DNA of 64,000 nucleotides from Firmicutes bacterium UBA5010 (lineage in GTDB: Bacteria > Bacillota > Clostridia > Tissierellales > Sedimentibacteraceae), in assembly GCA_002396645.1 (NCBI GenBank), contig DGYI01000067.1:13165-77164 (forward strand), given 5' to 3'. The position numbers are program-made. Each line of letters starts with the position of its first letter. The stretch's first letter is position 1. Positions 27,001 to 33,000 of the stretch are shown here, piece by piece.

Positions 27001-30000
27001 AGCTCACTAGTATATACAGTTCTTTTTACAGTATTATAAATTTAATATTCTATTTGATATATTTCGTCCGAAACCTTCATCATGCTCTACAAATACCAAT
27101 GTTGGTTTATATTCTAATATTGCTTTTTCAAGCTGCTCTTTAAAATATATATCCATATAATTAAGAGGCTCGTCTAAAAGAAGCAAATCATTTTCGGACG
27201 CTAATGCTCTTGCTACGTCTATTTTTCTTTTCTCTCCGCTGCTGTAGGTTTCTATAGGTTTATCGGGAGCAAACACCTTGATATCAAGAAGTTTGCAGAT
27301 ATCAAAAAATCTGTATTTGAACTCACGATCATCAGTCAATTCATCTATCAGGCCTTTTTGCCATAGAGGCTCTTGATAGCTTTGTGCAATTTTAATATCT
27401 TCCTGATGCTGCACCTGTTCAGAGCTTATTTCCCCGGAAATCAGCTTTAGCAGAGTAGTTTTGCCTGTTCCGTTATTTCCTCGAAGCCAAATTCTGTCTC
27501 CCTGTCTTATTTGCAGGGTAAAATTGTTAAACAAGGACTTGTTTGAATATCCAAAGGACAGTTTAATAATCGTAACTAAAGCATCGTCATCCGAAATATT
27601 TTGATTTATATCTAAATCAGAAACTGTTTCATAGTTTTTCAACAAGCCTTTCTTATGCTCAAGATTCTTCTGAATATTGCGTTCTGCAGCCTTTGCCTGT
27701 CTCATAAATTTTGCCGCTCTTGAATCATTGCTTCTTCCGAATGTTCTGAACTCTGCTTTTTCCTTGTTTGCAGTATTTCCCCAGCTTCTTTTCATAACCG
27801 AATTTTTCTCTAAATCCTTTATTTCCCTTTCCAATTTTTCCTTAGTCTTAAACTCATATAGCTCCGTCATATTCTTGTTGTCAAGCCATGTTGAATAGTT
27901 GCCCTTTTCTATTGAGATATCCGACTTATTTATTGAAATTATATGATCTGCGACATTATCCAGAAGCTCACGGTCATGAGAAACAAGTATAAATCCTTTT
28001 TTATTGCTAAGATAATTTGATACAGCTTCTTTCCCTTCCATATCCAAGTGATTTGTAGGCTCGTCTAAAAGAACAAAGGCATTTTTTCTTAAAAATAATG
28101 ATATTATCAGCATCTTGGTCTTTTCTCCACCGGACAGGGTTTCAAAATCCTGCTCTAAAAGCTCTTCTGATAAATTCATCAAATTTAATTCTCTCTTTAT
28201 TCTTGATTCAATATTAAATCCGTCAAGTTCTGAAAATTTATCAAGAATATCTTGATATTCCTCAAATCTTTTCTTGTCATCGCTTGTTATTATCTCTTCC
28301 ATTGCATCTTCCATAGTTTTCAGCATTCCTATACTTTCCTTTATAACGTCCAGTGTTTTGGAATATTCAGTGCTTTGTGAGTATGGAAAATACTCTGTAT
28401 TTACACTTTTAAATATATGTCCTCTGTCCGGCTCTATCTCACCGTTTATAAGCCTTAATAAAGTTGTTTTGCCTCTTCCGTTTCTGCCGATTAGTCCTAA
28501 TTTCCAATCTGTATCAATTGAAATATTTATATTGTCAAAAATTGATTGATAGTATTCTTTGTAACTGTATGTTACATCATTTATTATTATTTTTGCCATA
28601 GATAGCCCTCCTTGTATTTAAACCTAGCTATCTCGGAAAATTGTTATTTAGCTAGGTTAATTTATTTTAGTCCAGCTGCTTTCCTTAGTCTCATTTCGCA
28701 CATCTCCTATTCTTTTTAATTATTTGTTTTAAAATTCTATTTTTAACTGCATTCCTTCTTCGTATACTAAATCCTCTCTGAAGCCTACGCTTTTATATAG
28801 CTTCTGAGCAGATATATTAAAACGGTTTACACCTATTGTCAGTTCTTTTGCTCCTTGCTCTTTGAAATACTCAAGTGCCCATTCAAGCATAATTTTCCCG
28901 AATCCTCGTCCCTGATAGCGTCTGTCTACCAATAAAATAGCAAAGTGATATTCGTTCTTTTTCTTATTTGACTTCAAGACCATAAGTCCTACGGGCTTAT
29001 CTCCCTCCATCTCTACAAAAAGCTTATGATCTCTCTGATAAGCAAATGCGTAGGCAATACTTTGCTTTGCATCACATACGAACTCGTATTGATCCTTTGA
29101 TATTTCAAGATTCATAACATCGTACCAGTTTCTCTTATTATACGGAACTATACGAGTATTCTTAGGATATGTAAAAAATGCATCTATTTCATTTCTCATT
29201 TCCTTACGAAAATGTATCCATGTTCCTCCTATGTTTTCAACTACGATATTTGCATTATTTACTTGCATATAGCATAGCTCAGACTCTTTATTAAAATACA
29301 AAGAGGCTTCGTTGCCAAGAAGATCAAATTCATCTATGCAAATAATTCCATTTACAGAGCTGAGTCCAAGTCCTACATTTTCTTCATTAAAGCTGGTTGC
29401 CTTCTTCCAGCTCTTATCAGACAATATCTTTTTATTTGATAAAACAATATCTTCATATATAGCTATCATTAATTTTTCAATGTCAGCAGCTGTTGTTACA
29501 AATAAATCGTCAGCTGTCTCATCTATTTTGACTAATAAAAGCTCCTTATCTCTAAAGTTGCAATAAGTGTTTGTATTTACGCTTCTTCCTCTTTTCGTTT
29601 CGGACATATTCAGAGGCTCAAATATATATTTGAATTCAAAGTCCAGAAGCTTCATTCCTGAGACCCTCTCTATAATTTCCTTGCAAAATATCTTCTCTGT
29701 TGTTGAAAAATCAGCTTTTTCTGTTCCAGGCTCAAATTCAAGTTCCTCTTTGCCTATAAGCTCAAGCGCATCTTTGAATGAATAGTTCTTTGTATACATT
29801 CTTTTTTCTTCTACGACACGCTCTCTTTCATCAAGCGAGTTGTGCTTGTCATCATTCTTTAATTCAGGCATTATTTTTCCGTAAAAATAATCACGAATAC
29901 CTGATTCGCCCAATATCAAATGTTTTATTTTAATTTTATGTGCATGAGCATATTCCGGTATGTACTTTTCAATCGTATCATTTAGATTTATTTTCTTCAT

Positions 30001-33000
30001 ATCCGATAGCATCATCATAGATAATGCTGTTAAAAAACGTGCGGAGCCGCTGAACAAATAAGTTGATTCTTCATTTATCCTCTCTCCTGTTTCACGATTT
30101 GCTAATCCGAAAAAATCCTTATAAATGCGTTCTCCCTTATGGTATATACTAACCGCTCCGGAAATATCCCATTTTTGAGCTATACTTTTAATATCTATTT
30201 TATTTTTTTCTTTATTCATATCTTCCTCCGTTATGCCGCTTCACGGCAAATAATAGTTAGAATGAAGTTCTTTTCTTCACTTTTTTCACTTCAATTCTCA
30301 GTATGCCAAAAAATTATCTTTTCCTAATCCGCATACATATTTATTTTTATCAAACTTAATTTGTTAAACATTTTTGCTTATTTTTTTAATTGCAGTAGTT
30401 CTTTAAATCTTTCCAATAATATTCCGTTCTTAACAGCTTCGACTTCTTCATATCCCCATTCGGGAAATATTTCTCTTTGCGATGCAAAGATAAGGCCTAC
30501 CAATGAACCTGCTACCTCGTGAAGTATCTCCTCATCTTTATTATAATCACCATAAGCATCAAAAAATGCCTTTTTTGCTTCTTCTCCCAACTGCAAAGTA
30601 ACATTTTTTATATCCGAAGCTATATAGCCTTTTCCTAATAAATTATAGTCAAACATAAATGCTCCATGTTGCTTTGATACAGCCATGTTTATATAATAAA
30701 AGTCATTGTATGTAAGTGTTTTTTCAGTTGTATCAATTAAATTTATAAGTAAATATAAATTTTCTTCTATGCACTTCCATACCGGATTATCTTCTGTATT
30801 TGTTTTTCTCTTTACAATTTGAATATTTTCATACGTTATACAATCCGTTTCCATATACATATCTTTTCCGTGAAGCTTAACATATTCTTTGCCTTTTTCA
30901 TGCAAAGCTTTATACCACTTAGCTAAACCATAGCAAATATCCGAATCGTTCATATCTTCTTTTACTGCCAAACGCATATCAAGGCTGTGGCTTATATCTT
31001 CCATGAGTATAGCTTCATCCGTATACTCTATAATAGGTATAGTCAATATATCTAAATCCTGAAGTATCAAATAATTTTTTATTTCTCTTCTAAACTCTGC
31101 ATTTTCAAAATACTTTAAAACATATCTTTTATTACCGTCTTGTATCTTGTATAGATGAACTCCGTCTTTTGAACGCAAATTACTGATCTGTTCATAGCTT
31201 ATATCCATTTTTTGCAGTTGTGTTTTTATTGTGTCTATCATAATAATTTCCTCCGTGTTCAGACGATTATTCTGAAAATATTTGCTCCGTCATATATCGC
31301 GAGAATCTTTCAGCCAATTTATTATCAGTTAAAAAGTCATCATCAGATTGATAGCTTTTTAATGCTTCTTCAATAAGAGGATTGTAAATATGAGGCAAAT
31401 TTTTAATTCCCCATAAAGCCCCCTGCTCTTTTGAAATAACTAAATCTTCCTGAATAAAAGCAAGAACGCGGCAAAGATTTAAAATTATATAAACAGGATT
31501 GCTTCTAATCTCATTTTCAGAATTTTCAATATCGTTTTTTATGCTGTCAAGATAATAATGTTTTGGAACATCTCCGAATACCGACTCAATACTTTTGCCG
31601 TACCAAGCAATTCCAACAGTTTTAATTACCGTAAAGTGCGCTGCCAAATCCTTATCTGTTCCATTCATCACTGCACAATATTCCTCTAAATTTACTCCGC
31701 ACTTTTCTAAATGTGAATTTGAAAAATGCAGTTCAAACGGAGTAGGATAAGTAAAATTCAGACAGTTCCTTTCAAGAACCACGCTCATTTCTATGCCTTT
31801 AGGCGGACTTGAGCTTTCTAAATCAAGCAGTATTTGAATAAGCATAACTTTTTCCTCCTGTGAGGGAGTACTTTTGGTTACGGCTAAAAAATCAATGTCA
31901 CTTTTACTATGATTGAAGCATCCGAATGCAATAGAACCGTGAACATATATACCGACAAGATTATCTTTGAGTATTTCTTTGTATGCACAGGATATCTGAT
32001 TTAGTATTTGTTTATAATCCATTTGCAAATTCTCCTCTTCAAAATATATCAGTTTTCAAAAAAGTAGATATCTCCTAAGGTTCCGTCAGCATATTCCGCA
32101 TCGGGATAAGATTCAATTAAACGATAATTTCCCTTTGTGTATTCTGAAACAACCTTGTTCCAGAAATTAACTGATGTAATATTATGAGGATGTCTTTTAA
32201 GCTGCCATTTCCCACGAAACATGTCAAAAATCTTAAATACAGCAATTTTCCCCACGCCTTTTCGCCTGTATTTGAACATAACAAAAAATTCGGCTAAGGA
32301 ATAGTCTGTTGGCTCCGATGCCTCAGGATAATCATTTATCATTGCAAATCCTGCCAACTGATTATCAGCCAAAATAAAGTATGCCCATCTGTTTTTTTCT
32401 GTCCAATAGTAATCAAGGTAGTCATAACCGTATAATCCCAGCTTATTAACATCCCTATTATCCCACTGTGAAAATTCGTAATCGTATTTTTCAAGTAAAT
32501 TTTTTAATATTTCTTTTTCATCAACTGTTATCTTTCTTATTTCAACGTTCATATATCCTCCCATGATGCCATGTGACGGCATCATAGCGTGAAGTTTTTT
32601 TCACACTTTAATCTCTAAAATTATATAATTTTTGTTTCTTTAATCAGATTATTCAATATTGATAATTCCGCAGGCATAGCCCAAACTGTCAAAATGATTC
32701 AAAGCATTTCTCTGCAGTTTTGTATTTCGCGGAAAATCTGATTTTTTCCTGTAATTTTTACCGTATATTCTTTCCACAGCTTCTTCTCTATCTTTAATTT
32801 CGCTGATGATTTCAAATCTTTTGGCAAATTTTAGAATATTGCTGCTTTCACTCAGAAGCCTTTTATTACCGGGATATAGCAGCCACGAATAACATTTAAA
32901 GGCTCTATAATTATGCTCCGGGAAAAACTTTCTAAAAAAGCTTTCTGCTTTCTTAAATGAATCATCACATGCTGTCTGCGATATATCAGCATCTTTTTGT

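Follow-up and report, generated by a model that had tools for sequence, protein, structure and literature searches.

What does a gene that joins a beta-lactamase-like domain to an acetyltransferase encode: a bifunctional enzyme, a ligand-presenting device, or an acetyltransferase with an inactive companion? This question is raised by a 64,000-nucleotide (nt) stretch of the genome of Firmicutes bacterium UBA5010 (Sedimentibacteraceae; assembly GCA_002396645.1, contig DGYI01000067.1, positions 13,165 to 77,164), hereafter the window. One of its genes encodes a fusion protein with an N-terminal domain related to serine beta-lactamases and penicillin-binding proteins (PBPs) and a C-terminal GNAT N-acetyltransferase domain (Table 1). 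The original prediction for this gene, made from the sequence alone, held that the N-terminal domain may be non-catalytic and would then present a beta-lactam-like, D-Ala-D-Ala-like or other ligand to the acetyltransferase. Our analysis points to another answer, to which we assign a probability of roughly 60%: the protein would be a live cytoplasmic acetyl-CoA-dependent N-acetyltransferase acting on a small cationic or peptide amine, and its dead N-domain of S12 fold would have been retained as a rigid partner, either for structure or for docking the acceptor.

Both domains were recovered with profile searches. The Pfam model PF00144 (Beta-lactamase) matches residues 13-281 (E 2e-23; 83.6 bits against a gathering score of 27), and GNAT models match residues 385-482, with PF00583 (Acetyltransf_1) reaching E 4e-15 and 56.5 bits against 20.7; PF13673, PF13508 and PF13302 also exceed their own cut-offs. 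These PF00144 and GNAT matches are far beyond chance. We modelled the protein with AlphaFold2 from a 55-sequence alignment and obtained one compact two-domain model (mean pLDDT 92.8, pTM 0.89), and this pTM indicates that the predicted arrangement of the two domains is confident and fixed. A helix bridging the domains (residues 337-349) is modelled at high pLDDT, and R342 and P352 of the interdomain region are invariant in the family alignment. Column entropy is 1.40 in this region, 1.77 in the N-domain and 1.21 in the GNAT domain, the most conserved part of the fusion protein. The domain search and structure prediction that had been proposed as checks therefore agree with the original prediction that a single protein of 496 amino acids (aa) carries a beta-lactamase/PBP-like domain followed by a GNAT. 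We found no record of this exact protein on look-up, and none of the PADLOC anti-phage defence models matched it (0 families at E <= 1e-3). Because the protein lacks a signal peptide and a transmembrane segment (maximum Kyte-Doolittle 19-residue mean of 1.15; average of -0.81 over the first 30 residues), it is predicted to be cytoplasmic.

The fold of the N-domain is that of the S12/class-C enzymes, with an all-alpha part and an alpha/beta sandwich in the AlphaFold2 model. The top Foldseek matches in the PDB were a Pyrococcus PBP homologue (2qmi), a Bacillus halodurans protein (3tg9), the R61 DD-peptidase, FmtA, LACTB, alkaline D-peptidase and DltE, with E from 1e-18 to 1e-14 and template-modelling (TM) scores on the target of 0.55-0.77; the Foldseek probability was 1.00 for R61, FmtA, alkaline D-peptidase, DltE and LACTB. 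No solved structure in this search covered both domains (best query TM 0.52). The same fold is found across S12/PF00144 hydrolases such as the Streptomyces R61 DD-peptidase, the B. cereus alkaline D-peptidase, the D-aminopeptidase DAP, FmtA, DltE, Pab87 and LACTB, and intact relatives of the family carry the motifs SVTK, YS[ND] and HxG as these enzymes do. The fusion protein differs from them in lacking all three motifs and in bearing a GNAT at its C-terminus. In addition, most S12 enzymes act outside the membrane, in contrast to the predicted cytoplasmic location here.

An active serine beta-lactamase, PBP or S12 hydrolase carries SxxK, YxN and K/H-x-G, and none of these is present in the fusion protein. 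The SxxK position had been read as S-G-S-A-R; this string does occur at residues 57-61, but alignments to the family VIII carboxylesterase 4ivi, to FmtA (5zh8) and to intact relatives all place the true register at G58-S-A-R61. Across 120 family members, the nucleophile column holds mostly Leu (50), Ser (22), Gly (15) or Ala (13), the Lys column holds mostly Ser (43), Pro (29) or Arg (24) and not a single Lys, and the Tyr column holds mostly Tyr (34), Phe (29), Trp (29), Asp (11) or Gly (9). Asn was never found at position 173 in this clade, and the column of H295 is variable or gapped. In 30 intact relatives, by comparison, S58, K61, Y171 and H295 are each 100% conserved. The constraint on the surrounding pocket has gone as well: the positions that form the ancestral groove (ASVTKQFTA, N103/M104, N156, Y171, Y176, W250, Y282, W286 and H295) are each 87-100% conserved in the intact relatives and are all replaced by variable residues in the clade of the query. 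Former catalytic positions lie at about the 80th percentile of column entropy within the N-domain, and the degeneration of the motifs extends across about 55 clusters defined at 50% identity. With all three motifs lost throughout the clade, the N-domain is predicted to be catalytically dead. The suspicion that it is non-catalytic was thus well founded, and the additional loss of YxN and HxG goes beyond what had been noticed.

We computed ratios of nonsynonymous to synonymous substitution rates (dN/dS) by the Nei-Gojobori method between the query and its closest orthologues. The N-domain gave a ratio of 0.16-0.21, and the linker and GNAT together gave 0.05-0.09. The dead N-domain is under purifying selection that is two to four times more relaxed than that on the GNAT, and its length and hydrophobic core are kept down to about 30% identity. 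Several polar residues (Y54, D73, R134, K339 and R342) are conserved specifically in the dead clade.

The fusion is not confined to the window. In a search space of 5.8 billion proteins clustered at 90% identity, the family comprises at least 173 clusters. All of the 120 clusters among the matches listed contain both PF00144 and GNAT, and 119 of them are about 490-515 aa long, the exception being P0116 (712 aa). A scan of species-representative genomes detected the full-length fusion in about 45 genomes, mostly of Clostridia, including Oscillospiraceae, Anaerocolumna, Fusibacter, Acidaminobacteraceae, Tissierellaceae, Proteiniborus, Clostridium frigidicarnis, Christensenella and Sedimentibacter. 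The fusion also occurs, with 40-42% of its residues identical to the query, in five metagenome-assembled genomes of Dehalococcoidia from sediment (L015, L016, L018, L021 and L024); this occurrence could reflect horizontal transfer or binning contamination. To call the architecture unusual, as was done originally, overstates the case for such a recurrent family. In the literature searched, we did not find any description of a PF00144-GNAT fusion or of its pseudo-enzyme nature. The sequences themselves are already public, annotated generically as 'GNAT family N-acetyltransferase', 'CubicO group peptidase' or even 'fmtA'.

More distant relatives inform us on the order of events. In an exhaustive HMMER search with the N-domain alone, the first matches were about 55 fusion-length clusters (50% identity) whose motifs are degenerate; ordinary PF00144 proteins that keep their motifs came next. 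Four fusion-length clusters from metagenomes (P0177, P0267, P0269 and P0270) are doubly intact: they have the same domain order, linker and GNAT subtype as the query and keep SVTK, Y[SC][DN] and HxG along with GNAT motif A, unlike the clade of the query. P0177 shares about 28% identity with the query across residues 10-480, and P0163, P0165 and P0180 share 25-28% across the same span (E 1e-45 to 1e-63 for all four); the doubly intact clusters as a group also lie at 25-28% identity over these residues. The GNATs of these full-length homologues share the distinctive N-terminal region and motif A of the query. From these full-length homologues we conclude that the fusion arose once and preceded the loss of the hydrolase site. 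A neighbour-joining tree (without support values) places all fusions with degenerate sites in one clade, outside the proteins with intact sites.

Doubly intact fusions are rare, with four clusters versus at least 173 in the dead-hydrolase clade, and are probably true bifunctional enzymes, judging from their motifs. Other members have kept one half only. P0163, P0180 and P0155 have an intact hydrolase and a degraded GNAT; motif A in such hydrolase-keeping fusions reads PTRLQNIGYG or DELVQDRGYE, or the Pfam GNAT match is missing altogether. Conversely, P0165 has lost the hydrolase (GVTK, LSN, QSG) and has an intact GNAT, and the hydrolase-losing fusions keep a strict D-[KR]-[RK]-[YF]-Q-x-[RK]-G-[YF]-G. 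This pattern, drawn from a small sample, fits a bifunctional ancestor followed by reciprocal decay, in which the lineage of the window would have kept the GNAT.

The GNAT domain retains its cofactor motif. Q436, G439 and G441 of motif A, the acetyl-CoA pyrophosphate-binding loop, are invariant in both the 55-sequence and a 16-sequence alignment, which places the domain among GNATs by this motif, and the block N468/A471/Y475/G479/F480 is invariant or nearly so. We searched the PDB with a GNAT profile built from 16 sequences. The highest-scoring matches were RimI (2cnm, 41 bits) and NAA30, both over the cofactor core only (profile positions 82-140 of 150). The only matches over nearly the full domain (profile positions 12-135) were 2fl4 and 9dsb, at E ~2e-7 and 34 bits, and the GNAT of the intact relative P0177 matches these two structures at E 8e-11. 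Both represent Enterococcus faecalis BltD, a characterised spermine/spermidine acetyltransferase that is a stand-alone monomer in solution (PMC11808394). BltD proteins of E. faecalis and B. subtilis are GNATs of about 150 residues that share with the fusion an N-terminal 'Q-x-x-FV...S-x-A-x-A' and a 'D-x-R-Y-Q-G-x-G-x-G' motif. Stand-alone GNAT relatives of the fusion's domain are labelled 'diamine N-acetyltransferase' by JGI. The likeness to BltD exists at the profile level only, and we did not assign the domain to the BltD/SSAT polyamine acetyltransferase family; BltD-like chemistry is a lead suggested by sequence comparison rather than a membership call. Antibiotic-resistance acetyltransferases (AAC(6'), Sat/STAT and ArsN1) were also considered and rejected, with all NCBIfam scores far under the cut-offs (sat4 21.4 versus 380; ArsN1a 30.7 versus 170) and no NCBIfam AAC model matching the fusion protein.

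Taken together, we suggest that the GNAT would be the sole working catalytic centre of the protein. The N-domain of about 340 residues would descend from an S12-type D-stereospecific peptidase or esterase whose nucleophile Ser, general-base Lys, Tyr and His may have been lost once, at the base of the clade. Since then it would have been retained as a folded, rigidly packed and non-catalytic domain, most probably serving the GNAT as a structural partner or an acceptor-docking platform rather than as a site for the D-Ala-type ligand of its ancestor. Over its full length the GNAT comes closest to the BltD-type spermine/spermidine acetyltransferases, which makes a small cationic amine (a polyamine or diamine, for instance) or a peptide amine the most likely acceptor; with so weak a likeness, this acceptor class is a lead only.

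Several observations weigh against this interpretation. The query on its own did not reach BltD in the PDB at E 0.01, and RimI and NAA30 slightly outscore BltD over the cofactor core. The NCBIfam model SpmdActasePaiA gave 19.6 bits against a cut-off of 250, and no NCBIfam match to SpeG was seen. The conserved clade-specific residues (Y54, D73, R134, L250 and R342) might belong to a new ligand site instead of an interface. Finally, when we clustered the four genes on each side of about 45 loci, no neighbour was conserved family-wide and synteny was limited to individual clades, which leaves the family without a pathway anchor.

Could the dead domain bind a ligand after all? The original prediction can be generalised to a PBP-fold module that binds a specific small molecule, be it a beta-lactam, D-Ala-D-Ala, a muropeptide or some other antibiotic, and passes it to, or allosterically gates, the GNAT. 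Purifying selection on the domain, the clade-specific polar residues Y54, D73, R134 and R342 and the location of the gene in an island rich in resistance-like genes would all be compatible with such a role, as would the large non-catalytic enzyme-like N-domains that reportedly regulate other bacterial GNATs such as Pat. The entire ancestral groove has lost its constraint, however, and variability is among the highest at the former catalytic positions, which makes it less likely that the old pocket still holds a conserved ligand. The predicted cytoplasmic location, the resistance-acetyltransferase scores far under the NCBIfam cut-offs and the lack of any conserved link to cell-wall or resistance genes beyond the four closest relatives also disfavour this model, which we consider unlikely. 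In a variant that we regard as distinctly unlikely, the pseudo-PBP domain would be a cytoplasmic receptor that uses Y54, D73, R134 and R342 instead of the old groove to sense a metabolite, a cell-wall fragment or a xenobiotic, and would gate or target the GNAT.

It is also conceivable, if improbable, that the GNAT modifies a protein N-terminus or lysine in the manner of RimI and NAA enzymes and that the dead domain recruits the protein substrate. The top bit scores of the GNAT belong to RimI and NAA30, and the RimI model TIGR01575 reaches 52.6 bits; this lies below its cut-off of 86.4, however, the structural matches stop at the cofactor core, the full-domain likeness is to BltD and no partner gene is conserved. 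We attach very little weight to a cryptic hydrolase, in which the N-domain would cleave an amide or ester through non-canonical residues such as S57 or S59 with R61 and the protein would be bifunctional. Ser residues do flank the lost nucleophile in the window protein, S172 and S/C60 are conserved, and the doubly intact relatives imply that the ancestral protein was probably bifunctional. Yet no nucleophile/base pair is conserved family-wide, and none of K, H and Y has been kept. Of the columns at the site, 59 varies most and 57 holds S or P; S172 and S/C60 are structural residues inherited from YSN and SxT/SK. That two separate genes were joined by a frameshift in sequencing or assembly, which the original prediction had listed as a reason to abandon it, is a negligible concern: nothing was found in its favour, and the continuous open reading frame (ORF), the recurrence of the fusion in independent assemblies (the clusters and genomes counted above) and the conserved, well-modelled linker helix rule out a split-gene artefact.

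An acetyltransferase with a dead enzyme-like partner, as we favour here, has a parallel in Salmonella Pat/YfiQ, which is said to carry a large, non-catalytic N-domain of enzyme-family origin fused to a C-terminal GNAT. The layout is shared but the folds are unrelated, as the N-domain of Pat resembles NDP-forming acyl-CoA synthetases whereas that of the fusion has the PBP/beta-lactamase fold. Pat is, moreover, a protein lysine acetyltransferase, and nothing here points to protein substrates for the fusion. The GNAT-AmpD fusion of Chromobacterium offers a loose analogy only.

The genomic neighbourhood gives few clues on function. Directly downstream of the fusion gene and on the same strand, after a spacer of 129 nt, lies a gene for an Lsa-like ABC-F ribosomal-protection protein, so the adjacency that had been pointed out is real in the window. 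As a functional link it does not hold: only the four closest relatives (67-83% identity) have an ABC-F gene close to the fusion gene, and its offset varies (+1, +1, +2 and -3). This adjacency reflects island mosaicism without functional pairing. The spacer contains AGGAG followed by a possible 13-codon leader ORF (MCEMRLRKAAGLK, then a stop), and an inverted repeat AACCTAGCTA...TAGCTAGGTT lies just 5' of the ABC-F ribosome-binding site. The spacer showed neither significant overall folding (z -0.55) nor a terminator-like site. A scan for promoters and terminators showed no enrichment (19 promoter-like sites versus 20.7 expected, and 0 terminators).

Among other family members, distant homologues adjoin NUDIX/HD genes or a pur operon, and the doubly intact fusions are stand-alone genes too, such that their context is uninformative. 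In an Oscillospiraceae clade, a gene for a 238-aa HAD_2 phosphatase occupies position -1 in 11 loci (L013, L017, L019, L020, L025, L027, L028, L040, L042, L046 and L048), on the same strand and with a gap of 72-119 nt. P0116, the longest listed family member, has a HAD_2 domain ahead of the same two domains; it is encoded on a single 3.4-kb contig from one sample (L086 282-2420), and BLASTP shows no relationship between its HAD and the HADs neighbouring the fusion gene. P0116 is a weak lead as a HAD 'Rosetta stone'. The HAD_2 neighbour and the P0116 fusion may be a coincidence, or they may suggest that the acceptor has a phosphorylated precursor.

In the window, the fusion gene lies inside a co-oriented minus-strand island of about 23 kb (~10723-33527) with about 31 small genes, 18 of them GNAT-type. 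The stand-alone GNAT at 26512-26961, two genes downstream of the fusion gene, is a paralogue of the fusion's GNAT (24% identity, E 2e-13), and a comparable island is present in Sedimentibacter sp. zth1 (L001). By their profile scores, the APH-like and ANT-like proteins of the island resemble resistance proteins and fall outside the curated resistance families. For the class-I methyltransferase at 33527-34408 (minus strand), PADLOC gave 'mad2' as a partial match (E 1.4e-21) covering profile positions 256-462 of 492, which probably reflects the shared methyltransferase domain only. Two ORFs of 588 aa and 226 aa at 7833-10323 (minus strand) had no Pfam match and lie in the stretch of lowest G+C content (0.246 at 8-10 kb versus ~0.33 elsewhere).

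Table 1. Features of the fusion gene and its surroundings, in window coordinates
Feature	Position	Strand	Residues	Details and basis
Fusion ORF	28729..30219	minus	496 aa	ATG start, stop codon included; uninterrupted, no internal stop
Shine-Dalgarno GGAGG	30225..30229	minus		6 nt 5' of the ATG; read directly from the sequence
N-terminal domain of class-C beta-lactamase/DD-peptidase (MEROPS S12-like) fold, predicted catalytically degenerate	29212..30219	minus	1-336	Pfam, Foldseek, dN/dS
Interdomain helix and arm, conserved	29140..29211	minus	337-360 (F337, K339, R342, P352, T355)	
GNAT N-acetyltransferase domain	28732..29139	minus	361-496	Pfam, entropy, profile against PDB, dN/dS
Vestigial SxxK	30037..30048	minus	G58-S-A-R61	Ser to Gly, Lys to Arg; alignment to solved enzymes and intact relatives
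Vestigial YxN	29701..29709	minus	F171-S-T173	Alignment to intact relatives
Vestigial H/K-x-G	29329..29337	minus	I295-D-E297	Aligned to HSG/HGG of intact relatives; register less secure here than at SxxK and YxN
GNAT motif A, acetyl-CoA pyrophosphate-binding loop	28897..28914	minus	Q436-G-R-G439-F-G441	Family alignments
Lsa-like ABC-F ribosomal-protection gene	27034-28599	minus		NF000355, 405.9 bits versus cut-off 380
APH-like protein	30378-31241	minus		Pfam APH 18.3 bits, under cut-off
ANT(9)/AadA-like nucleotidyltransferase	31267-32028	minus		AadA_C 100 bits; NCBIfam ANT_9 85 versus cut-off 340
Island GNAT-type genes (starts)	10723, 13158, 13726, 15053, 15869, 16429, 17605, 19579, 20755, 22190, 23201, 24119, 25444, 25932, 26512, 28729, 32049, 32649	minus		
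Island class-I methyltransferases	12329, 21325, 33527	minus		
Island AraC+GyrI-like regulator	11372	minus		
Island ASCH protein	17038	minus		
Island alpha/beta hydrolase	18210	minus		
Island nitroreductase	20085	minus		
Island RNHCP-domain protein	24875	minus		
Three ABC exporters flanking the island	34717-40704			

Our results bear on annotation as well as on evolution. A PF00144 match in this family should not be taken as a beta-lactamase or a PBP, and neither the resistance-like island nor the ABC-F neighbour should be taken as evidence of antibiotic resistance. GNATs with a large inactive enzyme-like N-domain are a known theme, as in Pat, and the PBP/beta-lactamase fold in that role is a new variant. 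Among anaerobic Firmicutes this is a sizeable and unstudied family, of modest and not extraordinary interest, since it implies no unusual chemistry and is tied to no phenotype or conserved pathway. If the dead domain did act as a receptor, the family would represent a new class of ligand-controlled acetyltransferase and would, in addition, illustrate cleanly and in nature how domains decay reciprocally once a bifunctional fusion has formed. For the rest, the protein is one among many uncharacterised accessory GNATs of Clostridia. Fusion of a pseudo-enzyme domain to a live enzyme is a route that evolution has taken repeatedly to new specificity or regulation, and the public series of doubly intact, hydrolase-only and GNAT-only fusions could reveal how single-function descendants that keep the dead domain arise from a bifunctional enzyme.

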